Source: an uncultured Gammaproteobacteria bacterium
GTDB taxonomy: Bacteria; Patescibacteriota; Patescibacteriia; JACPHY01
Length of the DNA: 64,000 nt
Reading direction: 5' to 3'
Assembly: GCA_964585225.1 (NCBI GenBank)
Contig: CAZPCZ010000001.1
Location: 6,018 to 70,017, forward strand
Shown here: one piece after another, positions 4,084 through 47,450 of the stretch
How positions within the stretch are numbered: the stretch's first letter is position 1
Layout of the letters: the number at the start of each line of letters is the position of its first letter
Position numbers and translations under genes: made by a program
The notes under the pieces: model-generated
Database searches by the model: none
Seen by the model: the letters and a program-made list of their open reading frames with translations, nothing else
What the model was told of the DNA's origin: nothing

Positions 4084-5110
4084 CGGCAAACCCACGAGAT
4101 TTGCTCCCCACCCCCACGTTCTCCCCCTCCCCTCTCAGATGGGAGGGGGAGTGAGAGGGGGAGAGGAACGCCTGTGATAATGGGTGTACCTTCAGGAAGG
4201 CCTCATTACTGTACCGCGGGCTCCGGGCATCCTTCAAACGCCCACTCGCGACGAGATCGCGGATCTGCTGGATGCCGTCGTCGAGCGTGTAGCGGGGCTG
4301 GAATCCGAGCTCGCGGCGCGCGCGGGTGCTGTCGAGCCGGACATCTCCGGTTGCCGATCGGTCCGCGGGCCGGACGTCCACGCGTGTTGACGGAATATGT
4401 CGCTGGACGCGTGCGGCGAGGTCAATAATCCGCTCATTTTCGGTGCAGAGGTTGAATGGACCCGTCACCGACGTCGCGACGTGATCGGCCATCACCTTCG
4501 CAACATCGCGAACGTAACAGAATCCACGGAACTGTTGCCCACCGTGAACGGTGAGGACGCCATCCGTGCACGCGTGCATGGCGAAAAGATTTGGGACAAG
4601 ATCGAATCGCGGACGACTCATGGAGTCCGCAAGGCCGAAGAGTGTCGCGAGACGCACGACGAGCGCGCGCCCAGCGAGATGGCGCTCGGCCGCCACTTTC
4701 GTTTCCTGATACAACGTCTGCGGATGGAGCGGCGCATCTTCCGTGAGCACGCCGTCGCTCACGCCGTACGCGAGTGATGTGGACGGGAAGATGATGCGAC
4801 CGTCGTACGAACGCGCGAGCCATGCGAGCGATTGCGCATTGAGCGCCACCGCGAGCTCCGGATACAACGCACACGCACCATCTGCGACGAGCGCCGCGAG
4901 CCAGATGACCGCGTCCGCCCATGCGAGATGTGCACGGAGCCGGTCGCGGTCTCGGATGTCACCACGCACAAACGCATGCGGCTTCCGATACTCCTCCTCC
5001 CAGAGGAGACAGTCGTAGACACGAACCTCATGACCAGCCTCCGCGAGGAGGTCGGTCACCGCGCTCCCAACGTATCCCGCACCACCGACGACGAGGACGC
5101 GTTGAATCAT
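4070..5110 (-). CDS. NAD-dependent sugar epimerase/dehydratase (SDR), paralog of 30471..31460
   Basis: VLVVGGAGYVGS Rossmann motif. Blockwise similarity to the 30471 gene (VYD.LL.EE.YRK, WADAV.WLAALV.D.ACAL). C-terminal tail ...SPSHSPSHLRGEGENVGVG is encoded by palindromic element copy (a) and is about 19 aa longer than the paralog. Confidence 0.85.
   Translation of the reverse strand: MIQRVLVVGGAGYVGSAVTDLLAEAGHEVRVYDCLLWEEEYRKPHAFVRGDIRDRDRLRAHLAWADAVIWLAALVADGACALYPELAVALNAQSLAWLARSYDGRIIFPSTSLAYGVSDGVLTEDAPLHPQTLYQETKVAAERHLAGRALVVRLATLFGLADSMSRPRFDLVPNLFAMHACTDGVLTVHGGQQFRGFCYVRDVAKVMADHVATSVTGPFNLCTENERIIDLAARVQRHIPSTRVDVRPADRSATGDVRLDSTRARRELGFQPRYTLDDGIQQIRDLVASGRLKDARSPRYSNEAFLKVHPLSQAFLSPSHSPSHLRGEGENVGVGSKSRGFADGHQ
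4119..4166. repeat. GC-rich palindromic element copy (a), in-frame within the 3' end of the epimerase ORF
   Basis: ttctccccctcccctctcagatgggagggggagtgagagggggagagg. Arms are CTCCCCCTCCC / GGGAGGGGGAG. Confidence 0.7.
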
Positions 5111-13048: not shown

Positions 13049-14931
13049 ACGAATCCCTGATGCCGCGCCCACGACATGAGGGTATGGAGCGCCCACGGCC
13101 GTGCCCAGGTGACGCCGCCACGGTGATGCCAGAACATATCCCAGAGCTGACGGCATGCACGCACGTTGATCCCGAGTGCATTCTCCGCGGGGAACGATCG
13201 CAGGAGCTCGTCAACTTGTGGACGGAGCTGCCCTCGTAGCCATACCTCCCACGGGAATGTGAAACCCATCTTCGGCCGATTGTATACCGCTCGCGGGAGC
13301 TCCGCCTGCACCGCGCGGAGGAGGAGTGGCTTTGGAGACGCCGCATCCGAGAATGCCGAGGCCGGTGCACGAAATACTGCTTCCACGAGCGCGCGGTCGA
13401 GGTACGGAACCCGCACTTCGAGCCCGTGCGCCATGGACATGACATCCGAATCGCGCAGGAGCGTATTCGCGAGGTACCCACGGAGTTCGAGGAGCGACAC
13501 GGTTCGAGCAGCATCGAGCCCTTTGAGTTCCTCTGCGACGCCAGTCTTTGTCGACCACGCTCCACCCGATCCGGACGTCGATCCCGAGAGCAGGTGCTCG
13601 CGAACATCGGGATGGAAGAGCTGCCTCGTGATCGCGTAGCACACCATCGCGTCTCCTGACGACGTGAGGTACGCAGCGAGCTTCGCGGTGATCGGCGCAG
13701 CCGACGCCCACGTACGCGCTCCCCATGCGATCCCGTGACGAACCGAACGCGGGAGCGCGGCAACCATACGATGCGCCGCCACCATCCGAGGGATCCGACG
13801 AAATGTCGGATACCCACCGAAGACTTCATCCCCCCCTTGTCCGGAGAGGATCACCTTCACGCCCGCTGCACGGACCGCCCGCGAAATGATGAACACATTC
13901 GCTCCGTCGATCGACGGCTGATCCTGTGCCGCGAGCGCCGCGGGGAGTTCGGCCGCGAGATCCGCATCGCGGATGACGAGTTCGTGGTGACGATGACAGT
14001 ATCGTTCACCTACCTGCCGCGCGTACGCGCCCTCTGCGTACGGCGCCTCGGGGAACGTCACCGTGAACGACTCGAGCGACTCCCCCGCCCCCACGTGATG
14101 CGCGAGTACCGCGAGTGCACTTGAATCCACGCCGCCACTCAGGAAGAGGCCGACGGGCACATCGCTCACGAGGTGTCGCGCAACCGCACTCGCAAGTACG
14201 CTCGCAATCTCCGCAGGCGATGACGGGACGCTGCGCTGTGACGGGCTCCAGTATCGCTCCACCGAAACCTCCCCCGTTCGTGCTTCGAATACGAGCGTGT
14301 GCGCAGGGAGGAGCTGCGATACGCCCGCGAGGATCGTCCGTGGTGCCTGTACGGATCCGAATGCGAGGTACGACATCACCGCAGCGTGATCAATCCGCTT
14401 CGGCGCAAGGCCGGATGCCAAGAACGAACGCACCTCGGACGCAAATGCGAATCGCCCCGCGGTATCGTGTAGCCAGTAGAGTGGCTTCACGCCGACACGG
14501 TCCACTGCGAGCAGGAGTCGCTGCGCCGCCGCATCCCACAACGCGAACGCGAACATCCCATCGAGGTGGTTCACGCACGCCCGACCGTACCGCGCGTACG
14601 CTTTCAGAATGACCTCGGTGTCGCTCCCCGTTCGGAATGCCGCGCCTGCGGCCGCGAGCGACTTCCGAAGCTCGCGGTAGTTGTAGATTTCACCATTGAA
14701 CGTGATCCAATTCCCCGTTTCAGGATCACGCATGGGTTGGTGCCCCGACGGAGAGAGATCAATGATCGCAAGACGCCGATGCACGAAGCCGACTACGCGT
14801 TCGCCCATCTGCGCAAGCACCTCGATTCCCTCATCATCCGGCCCCCGGTGCGCGAGCGACGACGCGAGCGATTGCAATCGCTCGCGGGTGACGTCCTCTC
14901 GCGTTCCGATGATTCCGGCGATGCCGCACAT
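13045..14931 (-). CDS. Asparagine synthetase (glutamine-hydrolysing) family amidotransferase
   Basis: MCGIAG N-terminal Cys nucleophile, SGGVDSS PP-loop, 628 aa. Confidence 0.9.
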   Translation of the reverse strand: MCGIAGIIGTREDVTRERLQSLASSLAHRGPDDEGIEVLAQMGERVVGFVHRRLAIIDLSPSGHQPMRDPETGNWITFNGEIYNYRELRKSLAAAGAAFRTGSDTEVILKAYARYGRACVNHLDGMFAFALWDAAAQRLLLAVDRVGVKPLYWLHDTAGRFAFASEVRSFLASGLAPKRIDHAAVMSYLAFGSVQAPRTILAGVSQLLPAHTLVFEARTGEVSVERYWSPSQRSVPSSPAEIASVLASAVARHLVSDVPVGLFLSGGVDSSALAVLAHHVGAGESLESFTVTFPEAPYAEGAYARQVGERYCHRHHELVIRDADLAAELPAALAAQDQPSIDGANVFIISRAVRAAGVKVILSGQGGDEVFGGYPTFRRIPRMVAAHRMVAALPRSVRHGIAWGARTWASAAPITAKLAAYLTSSGDAMVCYAITRQLFHPDVREHLLSGSTSGSGGAWSTKTGVAEELKGLDAARTVSLLELRGYLANTLLRDSDVMSMAHGLEVRVPYLDRALVEAVFRAPASAFSDAASPKPLLLRAVQAELPRAVYNRPKMGFTFPWEVWLRGQLRPQVDELLRSFPAENALGINVRACRQLWDMFWHHRGGVTWARPWALHTLMSWARHQGFV

Positions 14932-21200: not shown

Positions 21201-22514
21201 TCACGCGGTCAAAATTTCCGCACCAACGACCTTGACGTCCGGAAGCGGCACGATGAATTTTCCGCCCGCGTGGAGGTAGTCCGCACGTTTGCTCACGACT
21301 TCCTTCATGAAACTCCAGGCGAAGAGAAGCGCGTAGTCCGGACGCGGACCTTCCTCGACGCGCGACCATGGATGGATCGGCACGTGCGTACCGGGTGTTG
21401 CGAATCCGTGCTTCGCGGGTGCGTCGTCTACGACGTAATCGAGGTACTTCCCGTCAATGCCGCAGTAGTTCATGATCGTCGTGCCGCGTCCCGATGCGCC
21501 GTACCCGATGATCGTCTTGCCCTGCGCCTTGAGCGTATCGAGGAGCGCCATGAGATCCGTCCGCGTCTTTGCGATGCGATCGCCGTACGCTTGGAAGGTC
21601 TCCGCGCGGTCGTATCCGCGCTCGCGCTCCTGCTGCTCCATCGCGCGCACGCTCTCGGAAATCGGCTCTGAACGCTGGCCGACGCGCCGCGCGTAGAATC
21701 GTACCGCGCCGGAACGAACACCTGGCGTGAAGTACACATCGAACACTTCCATCCCGTAGCGCGCGAGGAAGTTCCGAATCGCGGAAAGTGAATAGTATGA
21801 ACAGTGCTCGTGGTACACCATGTCGTACTGCATCTCCTCCATCAGCGTCCCGACGTAGTACACCTCGAACACGAGTACGCCGTCTGGCTTCAGGATCGTA
21901 CCCACACCGTCCATGACGCTCCGCATGTCATCAATGTGCGCGAATGAGTAGCTCGTGGTGATTGCGTCGAACTGGCCGAATTGCGTCTTCACGAGCCGCG
22001 CCGCCTCACGCCCGAAAAAACCATCGATGATAGTGAAACCGTCTTGCGCCACCGATGCAACGACGTTCGATGCGGGATCCATACCGATCGCGCGTACACC
22101 GAGCTGGGCGAAGGGCTTGAGCATGACGCCATCGTTGCAGCCGATCTCGAATACCGATGGATCGGTGCGGCCAGTCAGGAACCGATCGTGGACGTCCTTC
22201 GCGAAATCCGCGCAGTGCGTAACGAGCGTCTGGATCTTTGATGAAAAGTAGAAGTAGTTCTTGAAGAGCACCTCGCCCGCGACCGCGTTCGTCACCTGAA
22301 CGAGTGTGCAATCGCTGCAAAACTTCAGATCGAGCGGGTAGTACTGCTCTCCTACGAACTGCTCGGGTTTCAGGAAGCCGCCTGCGAGCGGAACGTCGCC
22401 GAAGTCGAGCACACGCTCAAGCCGCTGGCCGTCGCAAAAACGACAGGTGGCATGCGGCATGAATTCACCGATCCGACGTTCGGTGGTGCGGACAGGGGTT
22501 GCGGTCATCGTCAT
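21201..22514 (-). CDS. NDP-hexose C-methyltransferase (TylC3/NovU-like: zinc-binding + MTase + C-methyltransferase C-terminal domain)
   Basis: CRFCDG...CSDC zinc-binding region, class I MTase core (EIGCNDG) and a C-terminal domain. Start MTMTATP has an ATGA overlap with the GT2 stop. Confidence 0.75.
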   Translation of the reverse strand: MTMTATPVRTTERRIGEFMPHATCRFCDGQRLERVLDFGDVPLAGGFLKPEQFVGEQYYPLDLKFCSDCTLVQVTNAVAGEVLFKNYFYFSSKIQTLVTHCADFAKDVHDRFLTGRTDPSVFEIGCNDGVMLKPFAQLGVRAIGMDPASNVVASVAQDGFTIIDGFFGREAARLVKTQFGQFDAITTSYSFAHIDDMRSVMDGVGTILKPDGVLVFEVYYVGTLMEEMQYDMVYHEHCSYYSLSAIRNFLARYGMEVFDVYFTPGVRSGAVRFYARRVGQRSEPISESVRAMEQQERERGYDRAETFQAYGDRIAKTRTDLMALLDTLKAQGKTIIGYGASGRGTTIMNYCGIDGKYLDYVVDDAPAKHGFATPGTHVPIHPWSRVEEGPRPDYALLFAWSFMKEVVSKRADYLHAGGKFIVPLPDVKVVGAEILTA

Positions 22515-23275
22515 ACGGCGGTCGTGTGTTCCGGTACGCGGTACGGGATGCGAGACGCGTTCCGCGCGTGAGTAAAATACTGTCGCCAAGTTCGAAATCC
22601 GTACGAGAGGTGCGAACGACCATCCTCCGGTCCACGACTCGTGAGCGTGTATGGGATCTCGCAAAACGTCGCGCCGAGTCGCTTCGCTTCGCAGAGCTCC
22701 TCGAGAATCATCGCGAATCCATGCTCGGTGAGCCGCATGTTCCGGAGGAGGTCCGTCCGCACTGCACGAAACCCATTCGTGTGATCACGGATCGGGAGTT
22801 GGTAGAACGTGCGGGCAACACCGTTCCCGACACGGGAAAGCAGCTGGTGGCGCCAAGGCACGCCGACGACCGCGCTCCCCGCAGCATACCGAGATGCCTT
22901 GATGTACGCCCATCCTTCATTCATCTTCTCGTAGAATAGCGTCAGGTATCGCGGATGATTCGTCAAATCACTGTCCATGAAGAGCGCATAGTCGAACCCC
23001 CCATCGATCGCGAATCGCGCACCTGAGCGGAGTGCGGCGCCATACCCCCGATTCACCTCATGGTGCACGACGCGAAATCGTTCATCGTGGAGCTCCTCTG
23101 CGAGCCGTACAAGGATCTTCGGCGTCGCATCGTGGGAGCCATCGTTCACGACACAGAGCGTCGTCTCGTACGGGAGTGCACCAAGATGCGCGTGAACCGT
23201 CCGCACGCTCCGCTCCGCGACTGCCTCCTCGTCATGCATGGGGATCACGATGCACACGCGCATACGGTCGCTCAC
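22511..23275 (-). CDS. GT2 polyprenol-phosphate glycosyltransferase (DPM1/ArnC/GtrB-like)
   Basis: VCIVIPMHDE, VVNDGSHD and MDSDL (DxD) motifs. About 250 aa, soluble. ATGA overlap with the upstream FkbM gene. Confidence 0.85.
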   Translation of the reverse strand: MSDRMRVCIVIPMHDEEAVAERSVRTVHAHLGALPYETTLCVVNDGSHDATPKILVRLAEELHDERFRVVHHEVNRGYGAALRSGARFAIDGGFDYALFMDSDLTNHPRYLTLFYEKMNEGWAYIKASRYAAGSAVVGVPWRHQLLSRVGNGVARTFYQLPIRDHTNGFRAVRTDLLRNMRLTEHGFAMILEELCEAKRLGATFCEIPYTLTSRGPEDGRSHLSYGFRTWRQYFTHARNASRIPYRVPEHTTAV

Positions 23276-24135
23276 TGAGGAAACGCGAGGACATTACGAC
23301 TCCCTCCTACGGGAATCGTCGCTGCGAGATCGGCGACATTGCGCGGGAGTGGCACGCCGTGCAGATCGGTGAACGTATAGCCGTGCGCGTGAAAGATTCC
23401 GACAAGCTCACTGAGTGATGCCCCATGCTCTTCGAGGCCGTACGGGAGGAGCTCCATAATGAAGCGTGGCCGATGCTGCTCGAGCAGATGCTTGGCCCCG
23501 GAGAGTACGGCACACTCGACGCCGTCAATATCCATTTTCACGAAATGCACCTTCGGGATGGCGAGTCGTTCGAGCAGCGCGTCGATGGTCACGCGCTCCG
23601 CCCCCTCTATTGATGCTCGTTGCCCTCGATGGATGGGATGGAGGTCCTCCGCTCTCCGGAGCGGCCAACTCGAGAACAGTCCTCCGGAAGGTGTCGCCGA
23701 GCGTTTGTCGCCTGACCCGATCAAGTACGCCTGCACCGCCTGTACGCGATCGCAAATACTTGGATTCGCAGCGACATTCTTCGTGAGCTTTCGAAATGCG
23801 GAAGTGGTTGGCTCAATGGCGATCACGCGTCCCTCCGCACCGACGCAGCGCGCCATGGGCAGCGTGTGCGCACCGACGTGCGCTCCGATATCGAGTACGA
23901 CGTCACCCGGTCGCAGGACGCGCGTGTACGCTCGCATTGTTTCGCGTTCGAACGCGCCGAGGAGATAGATAGTGAACTCGATGCCCTCTCCGAGATCGAG
24001 CTCCCACGTGAATCCGTTTCGTCGAACACGGACGACGTCGCCGAACCCCGCCACGCGACGCGCGAACGAGATCGGCACGTACGCCGATCGCGCGATCGCA
24101 AGTTTCGTTTTCGTGTTCATGCGCACACGCGTCAT
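23272..24135 (-). CDS. FkbM-family methyltransferase
   Basis: VLDIGAHVGAHT SAM motif followed by a FkbM-type C-terminus. Start MTRVRMN has an ATGA overlap with the GT-C stop. Confidence 0.75.
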   Translation of the reverse strand: MTRVRMNTKTKLAIARSAYVPISFARRVAGFGDVVRVRRNGFTWELDLGEGIEFTIYLLGAFERETMRAYTRVLRPGDVVLDIGAHVGAHTLPMARCVGAEGRVIAIEPTTSAFRKLTKNVAANPSICDRVQAVQAYLIGSGDKRSATPSGGLFSSWPLRRAEDLHPIHRGQRASIEGAERVTIDALLERLAIPKVHFVKMDIDGVECAVLSGAKHLLEQHRPRFIMELLPYGLEEHGASLSELVGIFHAHGYTFTDLHGVPLPRNVADLAATIPVGGSRNVLAFPQ

Positions 24136-25556
24136 AGCACTCGTCGCCGCAATCGGAACGTCCAAAGGAAGGAGCCCCCATACGCCGCGAGCACGTAGAG
24201 CATCGGCATGAGCGGTGGTCGGTATCTTGGGGTAGCAACGGGAGTGGATACGAACACGACGTAGAGTACCACTGCGAGTAATACGGACAACATCCAGCGA
24301 TCGCTCCGATTTCGGAGCATACGCATGACGCCGATGCACGCGAAGCCCAGTAGCGCGAGCATGAATACCTTCAGTAGCCAGTAGATCGCAACGTAAAGGT
24401 ACCGACCTTCGGACCAGAGCGCGGGGAGCAGCGTACGATGGCCTGTAATGGCCCCGGAGGTGAACCCGCGAATAATATCCTCCACGCGCCCCTTGGGAAA
24501 AAAGTAGTACGGAGGAAGCGTCCCAAACAGCAGCGACGGCACATCGAGCAATTTCACGACGAGATACGTGAATGGATGATCGAGTACAATCCTGCGCCCC
24601 ACCGCATATTGGTAATCGCTCTTCTCCGCTACAGATGCACGCTCGGCGGCATTCGGTGGAAGGACGGCGGCCATTTCCTGTTCGATCTCCAGATTCGAGA
24701 CCCCTCGAATGCGGGCAAGGGTATGCGCCGCATGGTACTGCAGCATCACCTCACCGGATTGCGAACTGAATGAAGAAGTGCCCACCACATACCAATTCCT
24801 CACTTTCCAACCGCCAAAAAAGGCAAACACGATCGCGAAAAAGATACCAACGTGCAGCAGCTTCGTACGGCGCGAGAGTGCACCATTCCGCAAGAGATAC
24901 AGCGCGAGTATGAAAAGGAGGGGCACCCAAAGCAAGTACACGGAAACCTTCGTCCATGTGCCCACCCCAAGCCAGAGCGCGGAAAGCAGCACGCCAGAAA
25001 TGAACTGTTGCGCCTTGAGGTATCGCATGAGATAGAAAATACCCATCGTACTGAAGAAGGCAGCCACGAAATCCGGGGTGTCATAATTCATGGCAACGGA
25101 AATCATGTAGACGTCCAGTGCCGCCAAGAGCGCTGCGGCGTATCCGAGGCCCGGACCCCACAGGCGACCGATGCGATAGGTAAAGTACACCACTCCAATA
25201 GCCATGCACCATGTCATAAACCGCACGACATCGAGCGCGAGCGTGGTATCCCCAAACACGAGGAAGCTCGAGAAGAGCATGAAGGGATACACCGGCGGGA
25301 AACGCGAGGTCGAGAGCAACGCGCCTGTCTCGCTCACTTCGCCAACAGAAAAAAGTCTGTCGTAATAGAGGTGGCGAGCAGCTTCGACGTAAGAAAGGGA
25401 ACCCCCAGCGTGAGAGAGCAACTCTTGGCCATAGTTCTTCAACCAAAACACGAACAGAAGGCCCCAGACGAGCACGACGCACGCCCAGAACAAGGTGCTG
25501 GGTCTCCACGTCGCTCGGAGAAGTGGTGCGATTCGCCGTGCGTCCATACTGGACAT
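24132..25556 (-). CDS. GT-C membrane glycosyltransferase (ArnT/PMT, GT39/83-like), paralog of 41237..42631
   Basis: 474 aa with about 11 TM segments. Motifs shared with the paralog: LLWVPL, FFGGWKVRN, FGTxPPY, LLPxLWSEGR, YVLxxYG. Lower GC than flanks. Confidence 0.75.
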   Translation of the reverse strand: MSSMDARRIAPLLRATWRPSTLFWACVVLVWGLLFVFWLKNYGQELLSHAGGSLSYVEAARHLYYDRLFSVGEVSETGALLSTSRFPPVYPFMLFSSFLVFGDTTLALDVVRFMTWCMAIGVVYFTYRIGRLWGPGLGYAAALLAALDVYMISVAMNYDTPDFVAAFFSTMGIFYLMRYLKAQQFISGVLLSALWLGVGTWTKVSVYLLWVPLLFILALYLLRNGALSRRTKLLHVGIFFAIVFAFFGGWKVRNWYVVGTSSFSSQSGEVMLQYHAAHTLARIRGVSNLEIEQEMAAVLPPNAAERASVAEKSDYQYAVGRRIVLDHPFTYLVVKLLDVPSLLFGTLPPYYFFPKGRVEDIIRGFTSGAITGHRTLLPALWSEGRYLYVAIYWLLKVFMLALLGFACIGVMRMLRNRSDRWMLSVLLAVVLYVVFVSTPVATPRYRPPLMPMLYVLAAYGGSFLWTFRLRRRVL

Positions 25557-25559
25557 TCC

Positions 25560-26987
25560 TCACGAACGGAGATCCCACCACATGCGCATGACCGCACGGG
25601 TGAACCGCCACCCTTCTCGAAACCGAAGCATCTTCGACTCACCGAATGTCCGCGCGAGGTAGTGCACGGGTACCTCGACCATCTTCAAGCTCAGCGCCGC
25701 CGCGCCGAAGAAGAGCGCGAGATCACCGTAGCGATCGAGCTGCGCCAGCTTCGATGGGATCGACATGCGCTCGAAGTCGCGCTGAAAGAGCACTTTTGTT
25801 CCGCAGAATGCATCGGTTGCGTGCTGTCCCGTCACGCGAGCAACCGCCGAACCAAAACGACGGTTCATAAAGACATTAAGGGGCTGCATCGCGCCGCGCT
25901 CCATGGGGTAGATAAGCCGCGAGCCGTACAAGAATTCGCCGCGCCGTGTACTGATGGTGTCGTAGAATGTACGCAGCGCTGCGGGATCGACGCTCGCATC
26001 TGCATCGAGCACCATGAGGATGTCTCCGTTCGCTTGCGCGAAGCCCGTCCGGACTGCGTCCCATTTTCCTCGTCCACCCTGCACCACGCAGCGCACGTTC
26101 CGTTTCCCCGCGTACTCCGCGACGACGCGCTGAATCTCTTCCCGTGTTCCATCTGTGGAGTGCCCCTCCACGAAGAGGATCTCGGTCGCGCTCCCCAGCG
26201 CCGGCACGCGTTGCACGATCTGCTCGATGTTCCCGCGCTCGTTCCGTGCGGGGATGATGACGCTCACTCGAAATCGCGCTCCCGCCGAATGGCGGGGTCG
26301 CAGCCGACACATGACGTACTCGATGACGCAGAACCGATTGATGATCGGAAGCGGAGCGAGCACGCGATTGGCGAAGGCGCTGAACCACGGAATGTACTTC
26401 GGGAAGAGCGTCCGTCTCCCGTGCTGGATGATCTCGAAATCCGCGAGCTGGAGCAGTCGCACCACGTCGTGGTGTCCAATCCAGTTCAGGAATGGGTGTG
26501 GCTGCTTGAGCCGGAGCGATGCTGCGAGCGTGAGGATCGGGGACCAGAGGCGATTGTACTTCGTCACGATGACGCGCGTGCGCTCATCACAGAGCGCGTG
26601 GATGTTCTTGAACGACGCGTGAATGTCGTCGAGGTACCCCACGAGGTCGGAGAGGATGACGTAGTCGAACGCCTTCGTAATTGGCGAGACCACGTCAATA
26701 TCGCCCTCGTAGAACTCAAGATGGGGGTATCGCTCCCGTGCGAGCCGCACGACCGTTGGCGAGCAATCAATGCCCGCGCCAACCTTCGGCTCCACTGTGT
26801 GGAGGAGTTCTGCGGTTCCACACCCAACCTCGCAAACGGTGCTCCCCTTCGGGATGAACGTCCGGAGGAGCCGCGTGAGCCCATGGTAGTAGTACGCATT
26901 CCGGCGATTCCATCGTGGAAGCTCTGGCGCGATCGCATCGAAATGCGCACGAAGCTGTGCTTTCCGCGACTGCGGTGCGTCGCTCAT
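25560..26987 (-). CDS. Bifunctional SAM-dependent methyltransferase / GT2 glycosyltransferase fusion
   Basis: N-terminal class I MTase (VCEVGCGTAEL). C-terminal GT2 (VSVIIPARNE ... VLDAD). Confidence 0.8.
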   Translation of the reverse strand: MSDAPQSRKAQLRAHFDAIAPELPRWNRRNAYYYHGLTRLLRTFIPKGSTVCEVGCGTAELLHTVEPKVGAGIDCSPTVVRLARERYPHLEFYEGDIDVVSPITKAFDYVILSDLVGYLDDIHASFKNIHALCDERTRVIVTKYNRLWSPILTLAASLRLKQPHPFLNWIGHHDVVRLLQLADFEIIQHGRRTLFPKYIPWFSAFANRVLAPLPIINRFCVIEYVMCRLRPRHSAGARFRVSVIIPARNERGNIEQIVQRVPALGSATEILFVEGHSTDGTREEIQRVVAEYAGKRNVRCVVQGGRGKWDAVRTGFAQANGDILMVLDADASVDPAALRTFYDTISTRRGEFLYGSRLIYPMERGAMQPLNVFMNRRFGSAVARVTGQHATDAFCGTKVLFQRDFERMSIPSKLAQLDRYGDLALFFGAAALSLKMVEVPVHYLARTFGESKMLRFREGWRFTRAVMRMWWDLRS

Positions 26988-27934
26988 ACGTTCGCCACGC
27001 GCGCGTTGGCTTCATACCACGCGATTGTTGCCCGGAGGCCATCCGCAAGCAACGTGCGGGCGACAAAGCCGCACTCGCGCTGTGCACGAGTCGCATCGAG
27101 GCATCGGCGTGGGAATCCTTCCGGTTTCGACGCATCCCATTGGATGGTGCCCGTGAACCCCATGATGGAACAGATGGTTCGGACGAGTGTTTCGATGGTC
27201 GTTTCCATTCCGGTCCCCAGATTCATCGGTGCGGGATCGTCGTAACGTTCCGTCGCGAGCACAATGCCCTCAGCCGCATCCTCCACGTACAGGAATTCAC
27301 GAGTCGCTTGCCCACTCCCCCATACAGACACCGCATCGTCTCCCTGCTGCTTGGCATCCGTGATTTTCCGGATGAGCGCGGGGACGACGTGCGATCGCTC
27401 GGGATCGAAGTGATCACCAGGACCGTAGAGGTTGACCGGCAGGAGATGGATGGCGTGGAACCCGTACTCGCGCCGGTACGCTTCCGCTTGGACGAGGAGC
27501 ATCTTCTTCGCGAGACCGTACGGTGCAGTCGCTGGAGCAGGATACCCATCCCAAAGGGATTCCTCCCGCAGTGGAATGGGAGTATGCTCCGGGTACTCGC
27601 ACGTCGTACCCACGACGATGAACCGCTCGACACTCGCATGACGCGCCGCCTCCATGAGCTGGAGCCCCATGATGGCGTTGTCGTAGAACAGTTGCCCGGG
27701 ATGCGCGACGTTGTACCCAATCCCTCCGACGTTCGCCGCGAGGTGGAGCACGACATCGTGGTCACGCACGACGTCCACACACGTCTCCCATCGACGGAGG
27801 TCATGCACCGCCGAACGTGGAACGGTGATCTGTGCGGGTGGGACGCCGATCGCGAGGAGGCGGCGGTGCACGGCACCACCGAGAAACCCGGTACCACCGG
27901 TGAGGAGGATGCGCTTACGCTTGAGATCAAGCAT
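26984..27934 (-). CDS. fcl: GDP-L-fucose synthase (GDP-4-keto-6-deoxy-D-mannose 3,5-epimerase/4-reductase)
   Basis: ILLTGGTGFLGGAV, HLAANVGGI, ...YGPGDHFDPERSHVVPALI. Confidence 0.85.
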   Translation of the reverse strand: MLDLKRKRILLTGGTGFLGGAVHRRLLAIGVPPAQITVPRSAVHDLRRWETCVDVVRDHDVVLHLAANVGGIGYNVAHPGQLFYDNAIMGLQLMEAARHASVERFIVVGTTCEYPEHTPIPLREESLWDGYPAPATAPYGLAKKMLLVQAEAYRREYGFHAIHLLPVNLYGPGDHFDPERSHVVPALIRKITDAKQQGDDAVSVWGSGQATREFLYVEDAAEGIVLATERYDDPAPMNLGTGMETTIETLVRTICSIMGFTGTIQWDASKPEGFPRRCLDATRAQRECGFVARTLLADGLRATIAWYEANARVANV

Positions 27935-28028
27935 ATCTATCACCAAACGTATCGAATCCCAGTGTCCCATGCGGGATATGAACGGTCAATGCGCCCACGA
28001 AACCAAATACCCCGCTTGCAACCCGAAC

Positions 28029-28063
28029 AAAAAAACGCGCCCCGATGGACATCGCGACGCGCC
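28029..28063 (-). terminator. Putative intrinsic terminator (imperfect GC hairpin followed by T7) between the cupin pseudogene and fcl
   Basis: Minus strand reads GGCGCGTCGCGATGTCCATCGGGGCGCG followed by TTTTTTT. A 7-nt homopolymer T run is unusual in this GC-rich sequence. Confidence 0.45.
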
Positions 28064-28095
28064 TCTACGACTCCACTCTTCGCTTGGAACGGTGC

Positions 28096-28516
28096 TCACG
28101 ACACCGCTCGCGCGTCGCCGTGTCCTGGCGCGGGGATGGTGTCCCGCGCATCGTACGGCCGATCGGCGAGGGTGATGAGGATCGTCCCCGGCTCCGGGCC
28201 GAAGAACGTGTGCGGGACTCCCGCGGGACATTCGATGAGGCATAGCGCGCGGAGTTGCTCGTGTACCTGCTCCTCCGCGCCCACCCCCCACCACGAACCT
28301 CGCGAACCCACCGTGTGCGAGCATGAACCACTCCGTCGTGGTCGCATGGGCATGACGTCCGAGCGCCATGTCCGCCACGACACGATCGGTACATGTGATC
28401 TCGTTCACGCGCGCAACCGTAAAGGGCGCGGGGAGCTCGACCTCAACGATCGTCCGTCGCGCATCAATGTGGACGACGGGAAGCGGCATCACGGTACAAC
28501 GACGGTCCTGTTCCAT
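28096..28516 (-). pseudogene. FdtA/WxcM-like cupin (sugar 3,4-ketoisomerase-like), frameshifted at a G6 homopolymer
   Basis: N-terminal part (MEQDRRCTVMPLPVVHIDARRTIVEVELPAPFTVARVNEI...GRHAHATTTEWFMLAHG) is in the frame of ORF 27986..28576. C-terminal part (EEQVHEQLRALCLIECPAGVPHTF...ILITLADRPYDARDTIP) is in the frame of ORF 28096..28383. The junction is at the cccccc run near 28275-28280. Confidence 0.55.
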
Positions 28517-28591
28517 GGTGTGCTCCTCTCCTGTTTCCCCCGTGAGCGGATGTTCCGAAACGAGCGACTCGAACAACGCGATCCGAATGCT

Positions 28592-29617
28592 TCATTGATA
28601 CACCGCAGCCGCTGAACGCGACCCCTCCGCAGGACGAAGGGCAAACGCCTTCCCCTCCGCATCCACCATCATACGCACGAGCGCACGGAACGTCGTCTGC
28701 GGTTGCCATCCGAGCTTCGCTCTCGCTTTCGATGCATCACCGACGAGATACGGGATTTCCTTCGGGCGCAGCTCGCGTGGGTCAAAGGCGATGTAGTGTT
28801 CTGGATCGAGCCCCGCGTACGTGAACGCCTCATGGATGAACTCACGAACGGAGTGCGCCTCGCCCGTTGCGATGACGTAGTCATCCGGCTCGTCCTGCTG
28901 GAGCATGAGCCACATCGCCTCGACGTACTCTCTCGCGTACCCCCAGTCGCGTTTCGCGTCGAGGTTCCCAAGGTAGAGCTTCTGCTGCACCCCCGCCTTG
29001 ATGCGATAGATCGCCTGCGTAATCTTCCGGGTGACATACGTCTCACCCCGGCGCGGGGACTCGTGATTGAAGAGGATGCCACCGCACGCGTACATGCCGT
29101 ACGCCTCACGGTAATTCACCGTCACATGGTGCGCGAACGCCTTTGCGGCACCATAGGGACTTGCGGGATGGAATGGCGTCCGTTCGGTGATGGGGAGATC
29201 GGTCGAATCGCCGAACATCTCACTGCTCGACGCTTGGTAGAATCGACAATTCAACCCGCTCTGCCTAATCGCCTCGAGCAACCGAATGGCGCCGAGCCCG
29301 GTGACGTCTCCCGTGAACTCTGGAACGTCAAAACTCACACGGACGTGCGCCTGCGCGCCGATATTGTACACCTCTTCGGGACGAATCGTTTGGATGAGTC
29401 GTTGGAGTGCATTAGAATCCGCGAGATCTGCGTAGTGCAAGAAAAATCGCGTCGTCGGCGAGTGCGGATCTGCGACAAGATGCGCGATGCGCTCCGCATT
29501 GTTCGTACTCGAACGACGAATGGTGCCATGCACCTCATACCCCTTGGCGAGCAACAGCTCCGCGAGGTAGCTTCCGTCTTGGCCAGTGACACCAGTGATA
29601 AGCGCCTTCTTTCTCAT
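28592..29617 (-). CDS. gmd: GDP-mannose 4,6-dehydratase
   Basis: [29 protein letters not shown]. Extended-SDR YxxxK. GGTGGA RBS before MRKK. Confidence 0.9.
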
Positions 29618-29699
29618 ATCCACCATCGAATCAAGGGCACCGGCGCACCGCAATACCCCCCACACCCGCAGGCGGTCCGTGCCCGGGTGTGCTCGTCAT

Positions 29700-30422
29700 T
29701 CAAAACCACGGGATGCCGACCCGGTGTCCGAGCCCGCGAACGAGCACCCATGCGTACGCTGGGCCGTCGCGCAGTAGTCGGAAATCGCCCGCACTCGATG
29801 GTTGCGGCATGGTAGGAACGTACGCGACGCGCCCGCCTCCGAGGAGCCCCTTCAGAGTGATCTCTGGACAAATTGCGTACCCATTCTGGGTTAACCCGAG
29901 CGCTTGGACGTACACGCGGTCAAACATCTTATACCCGTACGTGGAATCGGTCACGGTGTGTCCGAGGAGGAACCGCACGAGCGCGCGGTAGAGTTTCTGG
30001 TATGCACGGAACTGCCATGAGAGCGCGCGCGCATCTTCCGACCGCGTGTACCGTGTTGCCTGCGCAACGTGTGCGCCGGCGTGGAGCGCGGCGAGCATCT
30101 TCGGGAGCGCGCCAAGGTCATCCTCCGCGTAGGGGGACACGAGTGCGATGTACCGGCTCGTCGAATACGCAATGCCGAACCGTGCGAGCGCACCGAACCG
30201 TCGCGCAGCACCGAGGCGCTCGAGGAGCGTGAACTGCACCCATGGGTATCGCTCGCGCATAAAGCGGACGATCGTGTCGCGATGCGGATCCTCATCATTC
30301 GCGACGACGATCACGTCCGTATCGCTCGGGTTCGCCATGAGATACGCCGCGAGCTGATCGAGGAACGACGGGAGAACCTCCGTGGACGTCGTGCACGGGA
30401 TCACGATGGACACTTCATTCAT
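29700..30422 (-). CDS. GT2 glycosyltransferase
   Basis: MNEVSIVIPC...VVANDED. ATG chosen because the TTG ORF start at 30455 lies inside the conserved leader motif. Confidence 0.75.
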   Translation of the reverse strand: MNEVSIVIPCTTSTEVLPSFLDQLAAYLMANPSDTDVIVVANDEDPHRDTIVRFMRERYPWVQFTLLERLGAARRFGALARFGIAYSTSRYIALVSPYAEDDLGALPKMLAALHAGAHVAQATRYTRSEDARALSWQFRAYQKLYRALVRFLLGHTVTDSTYGYKMFDRVYVQALGLTQNGYAICPEITLKGLLGGGRVAYVPTMPQPSSAGDFRLLRDGPAYAWVLVRGLGHRVGIPWF

Positions 30423-30462
30423 AGAAAGCCGCAAGCCGACAGCTGCAAGCTTCAAGCAGCGG
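30423..30462 (-). promoter_or_regulatory. Conserved 5' leader motif copy 2, immediately upstream of the GT2 ATG
   Basis: Minus strand reads CGCTGCTTGAAGCTTGCAGCTGTCGGCTTGCGGCTTTCT-ATG. Confidence 0.5.
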
Positions 30463-30470
30463 CGGGATCT

Positions 30471-31460
30471 TCATACGCGCGCTCCGGTCTGCACGCGGCC
30501 GAATGGCATCTCGTATTCCTGGAGGAGTGGTTTCAAGTACAGGTAATTCGAGAATCGAGTGACAAATGAATTCTTGATCCGTCCCTCCTCGAGGAGCGCC
30601 TTGAGCTCGATGATGCCGTCCTCGATGCGGCGCTCCGGACGAAACCCGAGATCGCGCTGCGCCTTCGCGCTCGTTGTGCGGTAGTTGCGGTTGTCCTGCG
30701 TCATCACCGACGATCGCTCGACGACCGCATGGGGGAAGTGGTGATGGATGCGATCCGCGAGATCGTGGATGGTGCAGTTCTCCGCATGCGCGTTGTATGT
30801 ACCCGCGGATGGTGTCGTAAGCTCCTGCGCGATGAGCTGCGCGATGTCCTTCACGTGGACGAACGGCCGGAACTGCTGCCCACCGAACACGCTCATCTTC
30901 CTATGGAGCGCGGCGCGCATCGTGAGCGTGTTCACGACGAGGTCGAACCGAATCCGCGCGTGTGTATCGCCGACGCCGTAGAGCGTCCCCAGCCGGAATT
31001 GGAGCACGTTCGGACGACGCGCGAGGAGCTCCTCGCCCCAAATCTTCGTCTTCGCGTAGAGCGAGAGCGGATGGAGCGGCGACCCCTCGTGGAGCTCATC
31101 ATCACGCTCCGTCGCGCCGTACACGGAACATGACGACATCACCAAGAGCTTGCCGTGGGAGTGCTCCGCGGCGTACCGCAGCGCATGGACGTTCACATCC
31201 ATCGTGAGCCGTTCGTTGAGCGCGCACGCGGGATCGCCGACGAGCGCCGCGAGCCAGACCACTGCATCCGCCCAGTCAAGGTGCGGCTGGAGTTGCGCGT
31301 AGTCGCGAACATCTCCGTACACGAACGGCACATCCTTGCGGTATGACTCCTCGTAGAGCAGCACGTCGTAGACGCGCACCTCGTGATCGCTCGTCCGGAG
31401 TACATCCGTCAGCGCCCCGCCGAGGTATCCCGCGCCGCCGGTGATGAGGACGCGTGCCAT
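30471..31460 (-). CDS. NAD-dependent sugar epimerase/dehydratase (SDR), paralog of 4070..5110
   Basis: MARVLITGGAGYLGG. Shared blocks with the 4070 gene. Confidence 0.85.
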   Translation of the reverse strand: MARVLITGGAGYLGGALTDVLRTSDHEVRVYDVLLYEESYRKDVPFVYGDVRDYAQLQPHLDWADAVVWLAALVGDPACALNERLTMDVNVHALRYAAEHSHGKLLVMSSCSVYGATERDDELHEGSPLHPLSLYAKTKIWGEELLARRPNVLQFRLGTLYGVGDTHARIRFDLVVNTLTMRAALHRKMSVFGGQQFRPFVHVKDIAQLIAQELTTPSAGTYNAHAENCTIHDLADRIHHHFPHAVVERSSVMTQDNRNYRTTSAKAQRDLGFRPERRIEDGIIELKALLEEGRIKNSFVTRFSNYLYLKPLLQEYEMPFGRVQTGARV

Positions 31461-31461
31461 A

Positions 31462-33195
31462 CTACGTCGACGCACGGACAACCTCTCCATCATTCGCAAC
31501 GCGCGCCGCAGCGTACGTCAGCGCGAGCGCACTCCAAAACCACGGGTGGACCCAAAGGTACACGGTCTGGTGGTAGAGGACGAGCGCCAGGAAGAGCGGG
31601 AAGAGCACGACGATGGGAAGGACCACGCGACTACGCCGCGTCCTCCAAAGCGCAGCGAGTCCACGAACCATCACCACCACGAGGAGTCCGGCAATCGCAA
31701 TGAGGCCGAGCGCGCCGGTCTCGGCCCACGCGTTCATAAAGATATTGAAGATGCCCTTATCCATGTCTCCAGCCGGAACCTCTTCGTCGACGAAAATACG
31801 AGCTTTCAAGTGACGAGCCGCTGCAGCGCTCTGCGCCTCGCGCCGAACCTGTTCAGCAAATGTATCGAATATCCGCTTATCTTTCAGCTGCCCCGCACCG
31901 ATACCGGTCAACGGATACGTTCGGCCCACCACCCACCCGACGGCGATGCCGCGCCTCCGTATACTGAACGAACTCTCGACGCGTGATGGCACCCAATTCA
32001 GCCGCGCGAGGTTCTGATTGGTGTAGAACGGATCCACTGGTGGAACCGTCGGGGGAGGGGGAGGTGGAACCGTCGGGGGAGGGGGAGGGGGCGATGCAGA
32101 AGATATCGTCACCGGAACGCGCTCCGAAGTCGCGCGGGCGGTCGACGGTGATGCCGCTTCGGGAACAAACGCGCGCAGGAATGATGCGAGGGCCACCACA
32201 CGATCCTCCTGCGCAACGAGGCCCGCAGCGATCGCGTCTCCGGTCACTGGAGATGGAGGACGATCGGCAACTGTGAGGGCGTATGTGGTGCGCCACGACA
32301 GCAACGTACGCGCGGTGTTCTGAATCTCAATGAGATTGTACCGATACCAGGAGACGACGAAGAACATGCCGAGGAGGAGCACCGCCCTCCATCGTTGCGT
32401 ACGAATCGTCGTGAGCATGAGAAGGCAGAGGAATGTGAGCAGCACGATCTGTCCAACTTTCACGAATGCAAAGAACACGAGCTGGGTCCAGAGCGCGAGG
32501 ATGACGAACAGCACAATACTCACCCACCGATGACGTTGCTCCCGCACGAAGAGGTACACGAGTCCAGCGCCAAAAAAAATGAGGGCGTAAGCAAGGACGT
32601 GCACGGTGGACCTCCCGATGAACTCGGTTATCTCGAGTAACCAGGACTGTCCGGGAGACGCATAACTATGGGAAAGGAACTTCGAGTACGTCACTGTAAT
32701 GATCGCGAGGCACGAGATCCCCATTGCGCTCAATACCGAACGGATGAGCCGATCCGACCGAAGGACGTTCACGAGGAGGAAGACGAGGAAGCTGTACCGC
32801 GCAACGGCGATGCCGACTTGGAGCAGCAACGCACGATCGCTCGCGATGGGGAATGCGATGAACTGCGCGACGGCGTTCAGGAGGAGCAGCGCGTAGAGGA
32901 TGGGGGCGTGGATGATGCGAAGACGGCGCGTCGCGAGCGCATGCATCGTGAAGAGGATCACGAGGAGCAACGCGAGCTCGGTATATTTCACCGACGTTCC
33001 GAATACCGGCAACCGTCCCGGGAGCGGGATGCCGAACGCATTGAACGGGAGCAGTACGAAGTATACAAGGGTGCTCACGTGCAGCCAGCGATACTCGCGA
33101 TCATTGAACACCTCCTGAATATCATGGAACACCATCGCCCCCGCGCGATGGACGCTCTCCCATACGATTCCAATGATTCGTTGCGGGGCAGTCAT
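31462..33195 (-). CDS. O-antigen ligase / Wzy_C-family membrane protein with a proline-rich periplasmic insert
   Basis: 577 aa with at least 10 TM segments. GIGAGQ...IFNIFMNAWAETGALGLIA resembles the Wzy_C GxGxG...HN..LE..E.G signature. Internal PPPPPPTVPPPPPPTVPP from a 24-nt tandem duplication. Confidence 0.7.
   Translation of the reverse strand: MTAPQRIIGIVWESVHRAGAMVFHDIQEVFNDREYRWLHVSTLVYFVLLPFNAFGIPLPGRLPVFGTSVKYTELALLLVILFTMHALATRRLRIIHAPILYALLLLNAVAQFIAFPIASDRALLLQVGIAVARYSFLVFLLVNVLRSDRLIRSVLSAMGISCLAIITVTYSKFLSHSYASPGQSWLLEITEFIGRSTVHVLAYALIFFGAGLVYLFVREQRHRWVSIVLFVILALWTQLVFFAFVKVGQIVLLTFLCLLMLTTIRTQRWRAVLLLGMFFVVSWYRYNLIEIQNTARTLLSWRTTYALTVADRPPSPVTGDAIAAGLVAQEDRVVALASFLRAFVPEAASPSTARATSERVPVTISSASPPPPPPTVPPPPPPTVPPVDPFYTNQNLARLNWVPSRVESSFSIRRRGIAVGWVVGRTYPLTGIGAGQLKDKRIFDTFAEQVRREAQSAAAARHLKARIFVDEEVPAGDMDKGIFNIFMNAWAETGALGLIAIAGLLVVVMVRGLAALWRTRRSRVVLPIVVLFPLFLALVLYHQTVYLWVHPWFWSALALTYAAARVANDGEVVRAST
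32041..32088. repeat. Perfect 24-nt tandem duplication (gtggaaccgtcgggggagggggag x2) inside the ligase-like CDS
   Basis: Encodes PPPPPPTV x2. The plus-strand GGGGGAGGGGGAG resembles one arm of the palindromic element family. Confidence 0.85.
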
Positions 33196-45384: not shown

Positions 45385-46395
45385 CTACGTATCGAGCCGA
45401 TCGCCAGGACGCATGCGGAGCGACCGGACCATGCGCCTAGCAGGAATAATACGACCTCGAGATACGCACGCGATGATGCGGAATGCACCGTCACCGCACG
45501 CAACGACGGGACACCCCGCATCATCAATGGTGAGCACGGTCCCGGGCGCCACGGGATGTCGCGCTACGGATACCGCTTCGCCATCCCACACGATGAGGGC
45601 ATGGCCACGACACGAAGTGATGCCGCCGCTCTTCGGACGAATCGCGTAGCAGGTGCGACGAATGCTCGCTCCTGTGTCGGTCCACGCGATGTGCTGGTGC
45701 GCACCGTGGTAAGGCGGATCGTATGTTGACGCATGCTCTTCCTGCGGGATCCCGCGCAGCACACCGACACGCGCCGCAGCGAGTACACGATCTGCCGTCG
45801 CAATGACCGCGCGGATGACCTGAATCTCCACATCGCCCCACGTTGCGTCTGCTGCAACTGTAACGCGCTCTCGCGTCAGGATATCTCCTGCATCGAACGC
45901 CGCGGTGACGAGGTGCGCGGTCACGCCGGTTTCCCGTTCTCCCAGCCGCACGACCCAGCGATTAGGCGTGCCGCCGCGATGTTTTGGGAGGAGCGCCGGA
46001 TGGAGATTCACCATCCCGCGTACCGGTACTGCGATTACCGATGATGGAATCTTGCGATGGAACCCAGCAACGAACACGAGATCGGGCGCGCACGCGCGCA
46101 GCGTGCCTGCGCACGTTGGCATTCGGATGGTGTCCGCAGCGAGCACCGGAATATCGTGGGCACGCGCAATCGTCGCAGGTGAATCGTAGGCGTCGAATGG
46201 ATCGCTGCATGCCAGCGCACGGCCCCACCATGCGGCGCGGAGACGCTGCGCCACGCGGATCATCACCGGAGTGACGGAGTCGAATCGCGTCACCACTGCA
46301 CAAATCTTCTCCCCACGAGCAAGGAGATGCGTCAAGAGTGCAGATGCATATCCGCGATTCCCGAATACCGCGATGCGAAATGGTGCGGTGGTCAT
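45385..46395 (-). CDS. Formyltransferase (Fmt/ArnA-N-like), candidate sugar N-formyltransferase
   Basis: N-domain ...VNLHPALLPKHRGGTPNRWVV plus a C-terminal Fmt-like domain. Start MTTAPFRIAVFG has an ATGA overlap. Confidence 0.75.
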   Translation of the reverse strand: MTTAPFRIAVFGNRGYASALLTHLLARGEKICAVVTRFDSVTPVMIRVAQRLRAAWWGRALACSDPFDAYDSPATIARAHDIPVLAADTIRMPTCAGTLRACAPDLVFVAGFHRKIPSSVIAVPVRGMVNLHPALLPKHRGGTPNRWVVRLGERETGVTAHLVTAAFDAGDILTRERVTVAADATWGDVEIQVIRAVIATADRVLAAARVGVLRGIPQEEHASTYDPPYHGAHQHIAWTDTGASIRRTCYAIRPKSGGITSCRGHALIVWDGEAVSVARHPVAPGTVLTIDDAGCPVVACGDGAFRIIACVSRGRIIPARRMVRSLRMRPGDRLDT

Positions 46396-47450
46396 ACCAA
46401 TCGCCCGCACTTCTTCACTGCCACGCCGAGCCGCGTGCTGAACGGGGCAGGGAGGATGCGCATGCCGATGCACGCCGCGCTCATTGCCGCAGCATGCGCC
46501 CGCTGCGCAATCGAACGCTCCGGCGTCACGCTGCAGGCCATGGCGTAGTAGGTCATCGGTTCCGCAACGCCGCCGAAGTGCACCTTTGATGCGTGGACGC
46601 TGCCGCTGACTGACGACTCACCCATATCGAGAAGCGGAATCCTGCGCGCGACGCATCGGCGGAGCGCTTCCCACATGAGGAGCTGCATCGGCGCGTACGC
46701 ATCGCTCCCCGGGAGCGCCGCGGCAAACGGGTAGACTGCACGACGCGGCCCGACACAGAGGAACATACCCGCGATGATCGCGCCGTCGCGCTCCACAATG
46801 TGAAGCTCCGTGTCGTGCGGACGCGCGGCGAGCACCATCGCGAAGAACTCCCGGGAGTGAATCGGCACACCCTTCGCGAGCATCCGCCGCGCGTAGCATC
46901 GATAGAACGCGTCAAGGTCTCCCGCGCGCCCCGCGCGCACCGTGCAGCCGGACCGCTCGGCGCGGCGAATCATGTTCCGCGTCTTGTTCCGCAGTGCGCT
47001 CCACATCTCCCCCCCCGAGGCCGCGATGGGCATCACGACGGTCTCCTTCTCTCGCGTCGCACCGGCAACCGCAAAATGCACCGGCCCGGACGTCACCAGT
47101 GCCGCAGGGATACGACGCGCGTCCGCCTCCGATCGCACCGCAGCGAGCAACGCCGCCGCAACCGCATCATCCATAGCAACGAGCCCGTACCGAAACGAGT
47201 AGAGCACGCCATCTCTGGCAACGTACGCCGGACAGCAACCGACGATCGCACCCGCGCGGTCGGTCGCGAGGAACCGTAACACCGGGATGCCATACACGGA
47301 CGCGATGGCATCGCACCAACCAAAGGAAACAAGCGCTGGTACCGACGCATGCACGTCGGCAAACACATCCCACGCCGCGGCATCCTCAGGCGCCGCGAGG
47401 CGAACGTCACACCGCGGGATCACTGTGTGGAGAGCGTCTGGAGCGCGCAC
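46392..47450 (-). CDS. FemAB/Acetyltransf_6 (GNAT-fold) family protein, putative aminoacyl/acyl transferase
   Basis: 352 aa. Duplicated GNAT-like halves. Family call is tentative. The N-terminus overlaps the ABC gene by about 31 nt. Confidence 0.45.
   Translation of the reverse strand: MRAPDALHTVIPRCDVRLAAPEDAAAWDVFADVHASVPALVSFGWCDAIASVYGIPVLRFLATDRAGAIVGCCPAYVARDGVLYSFRYGLVAMDDAVAAALLAAVRSEADARRIPAALVTSGPVHFAVAGATREKETVVMPIAASGGEMWSALRNKTRNMIRRAERSGCTVRAGRAGDLDAFYRCYARRMLAKGVPIHSREFFAMVLAARPHDTELHIVERDGAIIAGMFLCVGPRRAVYPFAAALPGSDAYAPMQLLMWEALRRCVARRIPLLDMGESSVSGSVHASKVHFGGVAEPMTYYAMACSVTPERSIAQRAHAAAMSAACIGMRILPAPFSTRLGVAVKKCGRLV

Follow-up and report, generated by a model that had tools for sequence, protein, structure and literature searches.

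A single extra base in a G6 run splits a stand-alone cupin gene between gmd and an fcl-type gene, probably through a recent frameshift

We found that a small gene for a sugar-nucleotide cupin, lying between gmd and an fcl-type gene, is interrupted by one extra base in a run of six G. The whole stretch of DNA analysed, 64,000 nucleotides long, is called the window below. The reading that we favour, and to which we assign a probability of about 60%, is a genuine and recent +1 frameshift (G5 to G6) that has made a pseudogene of a stand-alone cupin gene and is fixed, at the consensus level, in one clonal groundwater population. A first-pass annotation had proposed a frameshift in a G6 run of such a gene and had quoted one peptide from each half; both peptides were found on the minus strand in two different frames, and the proposal was borne out by repair of the ORF and by alignment with orthologues. 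On the minus strand, the cupin gene comprises 139 codons, from an ATG at 28516, 75 nt past gmd, to a natural stop at 28096-28098. The elements of the region are the following.

28592-29665, minus strand: gmd, GDP-mannose 4,6-dehydratase (TIGR01472 488 bits, cutoff 415; Pfam GDP_Man_Dehyd 452 bits)
28523-28531, minus strand: Shine-Dalgarno-like GGAGAGGAG, 6 nt 5' of the cupin ATG, read from the sequence
28286-28516, minus strand: N-terminal half of the cupin in frame 0, codons 1-77, with D18, R20 and motif 1 (from family-invariant columns and the CapF alignment)
28284-28289, minus strand: G6 run (C6 on the plus strand), site of the single-base insertion (from alignment and ORF repair)
28096-28284, minus strand: C-terminal half of the cupin in frame +1, V78 to S139 plus the stop TGA at 28096-28098, with motif 2
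27986-28285, minus strand: continuation of frame 0 past the junction, 98 out-of-frame codons that cross the natural stop and an intergenic hairpin
28045-28245, plus strand: antisense ORF of 66 aa overlapping the 3' half of the cupin, its exact sequence present in NCBI, JGI/IMG and ENA
28029-28066, minus strand: GC-rich hairpin followed by U7, terminator-like, 30-70 nt past the natural stop of the cupin and before fcl
26984-27970, minus strand: fcl-type SDR, starting at ATG 27970 or ATG 27934 (from PDB and NCBIfam matches)

From the ATG at 28516, frame 0 reads MEQDRR...IDARRTIVEVELPAPFTVARVNEI...GRHAHATTTEWFMLAHGGFARFVVGG (as a whole, MEQDRRCTVMPLPVVHIDARRTIVEVELPAPFTVARVNEITCTDRVVADMALGRHAHATTTEWFMLAHGGFARFVVGG) and then continues as low-complexity out-of-frame sequence until a stop at 27986, 16 nt short of the first fcl ATG. 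Frame +1 reads ...GVGAEEQVHEQLRALCLIECPAGVPHTF...ILITLADRPYDARDTIPAPGHGDARAVS* (as a whole, GVGAEEQVHEQLRALCLIECPAGVPHTFFGPEPGTILITLADRPYDARDTIPAPGHGDARAVS) and ends at the stop at 28096-28098. In the product encoded by the G6 allele, the first 78 residues are thus native and the 98 after them are out of frame, and the inserted G parts cupin motif 1 (HxH...E, frame 0; G53-x-H55-x-H57-x4-E62-x6-G69) from cupin motif 2 (PxGxxH, frame +1; P97-x-G99-x-x-H102). The run at 28284-28289 is the only G/C run of at least six bases within the gene and the sole long one between the two halves; the first-pass annotation was right about the G6 itself and had placed it 9 nt away, at about 28275-28280. The span 27986-28576, given there as the gene, is indeed an ORF in frame 0, which opens at an upstream TTG and closes at the first stop in that frame, but its limits are not those of the gene: it holds 20 spurious N-terminal codons as well as the 98 out-of-frame codons over the natural stop and the spacer. 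The closest orthologue, P0001, starts with an MEQ equivalent to the ATG at 28516.

Re-translation with one G deleted gave a single ORF of 139 aa, which could be aligned to intact orthologues. A word-indexed homologue search with this repaired protein returned nothing and a full HMMER scan of 1.84 billion representative proteins was needed, in which 21 matches were obtained at E<=0.001. The best, P0001 (132 aa), shows 71% identity (E 8e-55) with residues 1-130 aligned to 1-130; the second, P0002 (359 aa), shows 66% identity over residues 4-134 (E 1e-52). Both cross the junction without gaps, FVVGVGAEEQV in the window corresponding to LVAGVGAEEQV in P0001 and FVAGEGTDEQV in P0002. In the DNA alignment, the window carries a single additional base, located within its G run (GTGGTGGGGGGTGG against GTTGC-GGGAGTCGG and GTTGC-CGGTGAGGG), and the orthologues, which read GC-GGGAGTC and GC-CGGTGAG at this site, have no homopolymer. 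The Pfam FdtA family matches the joined protein only, across the junction (residues 18-127 to model positions 13-120), and neither half alone matched Pfam at E<=1. The positional GC signature, with GC2 lowest, follows frame 0 upstream of the tract and frame +1 downstream. Finally, AlphaFold2, run with an alignment of 20 sequences, folded the repaired protein into an all-beta barrel of 11 strands (pLDDT 87.5, pTM 0.80) in which strands lie on either side of the junction. Taken together, the repair of the ORF, the match to orthologues, the one-base insertion, the FdtA match of the joined protein only and the shift of GC2 argue that the splitting of the two frames is more than a chance arrangement.

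We infer that the ancestral tract was G5 (GTG GTG GGG GTG GGC). Judging by the alignments, the G5 run would have arisen first in the window lineage through synonymous or conservative changes, one further G being gained later. Restoring the frame with a G8 tract was also considered and rejected, because it adds a Gly absent from the orthologues.

One could wonder whether the G6 allele still yields some full-length cupin by recoding, ribosomes slipping by +1 on GGG_G, or RNA polymerase slipping on the run. If a P-site tRNA-Gly moved from GGG onto the overlapping GGG, the next codons would be GTG GGC GCG, giving exactly the ancestral ...FVVGVGAEEQ...; the downstream half is also intact. However, the site is not conserved, the orthologues being simply in frame without the run; no 0-frame stop or obvious stimulator stands beside the run, the next 0-frame stop coming 98 codons on. 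The ensemble expected of a programmed +1 frameshift of the prfB type, that is a conserved slippery site, an adjacent stop or slow codon and a stimulator, was not found at the G6. Unstimulated slippage usually amounts to around 1% or less. We therefore regard recoding as highly improbable.

The question of whether the extra base is real was addressed with other contigs of the same organism, reached through exact-protein look-ups. Three other public contigs, whose ends differ, also carry the G6 between identical flanks, which makes four assemblies with the window: ENA ERZ27245685 k141_66592 (7,289 bp) is 100% identical to window positions 28914-21626; JGI 3300025157 Ga0209399_10015213 (3,230 bp) is 100% identical; and JGI 3300022563 Ga0212128_10000904 (21,645 bp) is identical over 25045-31070 and strongly divergent beyond. 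No tract length other than G6 occurs in the consensus of the four, a level of comparison at which a minority G5 subpopulation would be invisible. The published description of JGI 3300025157 (PMC10811736) is of Illumina reads from a warm spring at Beatty, Nevada. JGI 3300009444, in which the organism occurs too, belongs to a set of four assemblies cited by a study (10.1101/176263) that used Illumina HiSeq to sequence metagenomes of a rhizosphere sample and of the Oasis Valley OV-2 groundwater well. Since the four assemblies agree at every position around the site (100% identity) and seemingly come from one locality, they are to be read as independent assemblies, not as independent populations.

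An error of sequencing or assembly, with an organism that truly carries G5 and an intact gene, had been listed as an alternative by the first-pass annotation. Homopolymers are classic sites of indel errors, the repaired gene looks perfectly healthy, and the assemblies may share overlapping read sets from one site. On the other hand, the same G6 recurs in four assemblies whose contig boundaries differ; these carry three distinct dataset identifiers, and their contig names point to different assemblers. At least one dataset is stated to be Illumina (3300025157), a technology that rarely leaves an indel in the consensus of a 6-mer. Besides the G6, the window has ten G/C runs of 6-8 nt, and a crude tiling by long ORFs, which counted about 55 apparently intact genes, revealed no other obviously split or frameshifted-looking gene in the 64 kb. 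These observations make a consensus error improbable, and a genuine frameshift is favoured.

Searches for an intact version of the gene gave no trace of one. Among about 15 billion public protein sequences, the intact product is missing in both its G5 and its G8 form, and no cupin product is on record for the locus, where the antisense 66-aa ORF is recorded instead (three contigs by cluster look-up, four read in the contig look-up). This antisense ORF is probably a spurious gene call provoked by the frameshift and annotated in place of the broken cupin. A pattern scan of one metagenome contig collection, allowing 3-10 bases between the exact flanks, gave zero hits, and a protein-pattern scan gave none either; both are uninformative, as this collection evidently does not contain the tract-bearing JGI contigs. 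Exact-product look-ups with Gmd (357 aa), Fcl (328 aa), the neighbouring proteins of 774 aa and 577 aa and P0023 returned nothing, probably because the called starts differ.

Another alternative raised at first was phase variation, in which slipped-strand mispairing would flip the tract between G5 (ON) and G6 (OFF) and toggle a surface 6-deoxyhexose variant within the population. Poly-G/C contingency tracts are known in glycan genes of Campylobacter, Helicobacter and Neisseria. The window tract resembles them in being a homopolymer that lies in a surface-glycan gene and determines the reading frame by its length: the break falls exactly in the homopolymer, G5 restores the frame, and the downstream half is fully preserved, as would be expected of a transient OFF state. 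The glycan locus is also variable between strains, with assemblies that break or diverge at 21610-21626, 28914 and 31071. However, none of the four assemblies shows a length variant and no intact allele is recorded. Tracts with documented high switching rates usually have 7-8 or more G/C, and the window tract has only six bases. As the orthologues lack it, it cannot count as a contingency tract that has been conserved. Moreover, the window has fewer G/C runs of at least six bases than expected (11 against 20.6 +/- 4.2). Phase variation found no support in these data and we consider it unlikely. Two other runs of the window may be mentioned here. A G8 run at 47009-47016 lies in frame on the coding strand of an intact FemAB/GNAT-like acetyltransferase gene (46392-47450, minus strand) of the same glycan cluster, and is a better a priori candidate for slippage because it is longer than G6; a C7 run at 13830-13836 lies in frame in an asparagine-synthase-like gene.

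As to the variability of the locus, contigs of three public assemblies start or end at 21610-21626 and one contig of 7.3 kb corresponds exactly to 21626-28914. One JGI contig matches the window exactly through 31070; from there on, within the SDR gene 30471-31499, identity falls to about 70%. The window has no internal repeats at 21610-21626, 28914 or 31071. This pattern suggests that the glycan locus undergoes strain-level cassette exchange.

How old, then, is the genuine +1 frameshift that we favour? Identity to the two orthologues is 74-76% in the C-terminal half against 58-67% in the N-terminal half. Amino-acid changes specific to the window number nine in the N-terminal half and three in the C-terminal half, the corresponding counts for the two intact orthologues being 7/5 and 14/6. 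The seven family-invariant residues (D18, R20, G53, H55, H57, G69 and H102) are all kept. Identity, substitution counts and invariant residues thus gave no sign of relaxed constraint downstream of the frameshift, which means that the frameshift is very recent or that the gene is still used in some cells. The absence of decay fits equally well a gene that remains in use through reversion or slippage, and the G run is a reversible mutational hotspot. Under the reading of a recent pseudogene, the frameshifted product would be unable to form the beta-barrel and would hence be inactive.

The hallmarks of the cupin superfamily, namely the barrel model together with H55, H57, E62, G69, P97, G99 and H102, appear only once one G is removed. 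The model of the repaired protein matches 294 PDB cupins in Foldseek at E<=0.001, with CapF first (E 7e-8, TM 0.69, rmsd 2.6 A), followed by QdtA, FdtD and FdtA. Likewise, a profile of the family compared with the PDB gave the C-terminal cupin domain of Cap5F/CapF as best match (E 7e-10, profile positions 15-125), then QdtA (2e-9) and FdtA (5e-8), with weaker matches to RmlC-type epimerases and metal cupins. Profile and predicted fold thus place the protein closest to the CapF C-terminal cupin domain, and then to QdtA/FdtA. The label 'FdtA-like', used at first, is a borderline one: PF05523 (FdtA) scores 22.3 bits (E 1.2e-4, residues 18-127) for a gathering threshold of 23, and profile and predicted fold are nearer to CapF. 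The same model exceeds the threshold with P0001 (28.1 bits) and matches nine of the 20 family members at E<0.01. PF14667, the CapF C-terminal cupin family, had no match in the repaired protein at E<=1 and matches 12 of the 20 relatives at E<0.01. The WbuC model TIGR04366 gave 17.3 bits with the window protein, under its cutoff of 42, and matches 14 of the 20 members at E<0.01 (best 3.4e-10). WbuC family cupin-fold metalloproteins resemble the window protein in being small, stand-alone cupins; a literature search on WbuC returned papers on resistance-gene neighbourhoods, with no functional study among them.

A parallel can be drawn with CapF/Cap5F of the UDP-L-FucNAc pathway of Staphylococcus aureus (PDB 3ST7, 2ZKL, 4YRD). 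CapF is made of an SDR domain and a cupin domain and carries out C3-epimerisation, then C4-reduction, of a 4-keto-6-deoxy sugar nucleotide (PMC3699295). The motifs GxHxH-x4-E-x6-G and PxGxxH are common to both proteins, and the window cupin adjoins an SDR gene, fcl. In contrast, identity is only about 19%, and the window cupin is stand-alone whereas that of CapF is fused to the SDR. Since the window cupin is linked to gmd, its substrate would be a GDP-sugar, as opposed to the UDP-HexNAc of CapF.

The dTDP-4-keto-6-deoxyglucose 3,4-ketoisomerases FdtA and QdtA (PDB 2PA7, 4ZU7) offer a second comparison, as they are stand-alone proteins of 131-144 aa, colinear with the window cupin over residues 21-127. 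The segment GRHAH of the cupin aligns with GYHSH of QdtA, so that the active-site His pair is present; in FdtA we take this pair to be His49/His51, and the PDB titles of 2pak and 2pam name H51N and H49N/H51N mutants. Unlike FdtA and QdtA, the window cupin retains the full metal-type cupin motif (E62) and is partnered by gmd, not by rmlA/rmlB, neither of which was found adjacent to it.

The first-pass annotation had also pointed to a second intact cupin of the same type, which lies in the ORF 3556-4095 (minus strand, 179 aa). This was rejected: the ORF matches PF00908 (dTDP_sugar_isom/RmlC) with 39 bits and FdtA with 21 bits, below cutoff, and BLASTP against the broken cupin gave an E-value of 0.26. 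By these sequence matches, it is an RmlC-like cupin, of another family. It adjoins an SDR gene (4070-5110, minus strand) which shares its Pfam profile (Epimerase, RmlD_sub_bind, GDP_Man_Dehyd) with the SDR gene 30471-31499 (minus strand), two genes upstream of gmd, the N-termini of the two being visibly alike. Nearly all of the 64 kb forms one co-directional cell-surface glycan supercluster on the minus strand, with three AsnB-like amidotransferases, two PMT_2 membrane glycosyltransferases, a double GT4 protein (774 aa), a DegT aminotransferase, a PglF-like dehydratase, a formyltransferase, a PIG-L deacetylase and an RmlD-like SDR adjoining a UDP-GlcNAc 2-epimerase.

Concerning the immediate neighbours, the gmd ORF as listed starts at GTG 29665; gene calls on two identical contigs are 344 aa long (L087, L089), and the true start probably lies further downstream. 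The best PDB matches of the fcl-type SDR are the GDP-L-fucose synthases 7ll6 (1e-61) and 1bsv (1e-52), and its match to NCBIfam NF047922, at 258 bits, is under the equivalog cutoff of 500. Its segments TTCEYP and SHVVPA correspond to SSCIYP and SHVLPA in the alignment with 7ll6; from E. coli GMER, we take them to hold the Cys/His epimerisation pair. On these matches, the fcl-type enzyme probably makes GDP-L-fucose by itself.

The spacer between the cupin and fcl has features of its own. The 5' arm of the hairpin at 28029-28066 alternatively pairs with 28110-28125, in the last cupin codons (88% complementary over 16 nt), and a longer fold across the region (-54.2 kcal/mol, z -2.7) favours this alternative pairing. 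The hairpin may be a translation-sensitive attenuator of fcl. The frame-0 read-through due to the frameshift runs across this putative attenuator. The orthologous contig L001 has a different hairpin at the same position (CCCCGACC-AAA-GGTCGGGG), and an Rfam search of 27700-28800 gave no match.

The arrangement of genes around the cupin recurs elsewhere. The P0001 gene lies on a metagenomic contig of 6.5 kb (L001) in the order gmd (3' end), cupin, fcl-type SDR, methyltransferase+GT2, PMT_2 membrane glycosyltransferase and FkbM methyltransferase, which is also the order of the window, at about 72% nucleotide identity. The P0002 cupin is likewise placed after gmd. P0002 (L002, 915-1994) is a fusion in which the cupin is followed by a further C-terminal part of about 220 aa; this part had no Pfam match, and our guess that it was a NUDIX domain was dropped for that reason. 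A distant relative, P0005, adjoins an SDR gene and two NUDIX genes. With Gmd as the query, 80 loci were retrieved from 185,579 species representatives, the best with 71% identity, and the lineage therefore seems unrepresented among them. A distant cupin relative occurs at only one of these 80 loci, in a Candidatus Azambacteria MAG (L075), divergent from gmd. A scan of genome contigs with the cupin alignment found none.

Given where the gene lies and how its product resembles FdtA/QdtA and the cupin domain of CapF, the intact cupin could be an epimerase or a keto-isomerase acting on GDP-4-keto-6-deoxy-D-mannose, the product of Gmd. Because the fcl-type gene keeps residues aligned with those of bona fide GDP-L-fucose synthases, loss of the cupin would take away a side branch, with the simple route to GDP-L-fucose staying in place. 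It is plausible, as suggested at first, that the state of the cupin could alter the deoxyhexose made. A bolder hypothesis would be that the gmd-linked stand-alone metal-type cupins (the window protein, P0001, P0002 and the more distant relatives beside SDR and NUDIX genes) form an uncharacterised family that epimerises or isomerises GDP-4-keto-6-deoxy-D-mannose on the way to a 6-deoxyhexose other than L-fucose, the G run being here a reversible ON/OFF switch of a surface sugar; we hold this to be improbable as a whole.

A single-base frameshift in a homopolymer is the commonest route to gene breakage, and the event described here is ordinary and would not surprise a specialist. Its first value is for annotation, since public gene calls omit the cupin and record a probably spurious antisense protein of 66 aa. 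For the organism, the break suggests the recent loss, in one groundwater population, of an accessory step off the GDP-fucose pathway. As for the family, it is a small group of gmd-linked cupins with no characterised member, and its intact orthologues are sensible targets in the search for a new GDP-6-deoxyhexose activity.
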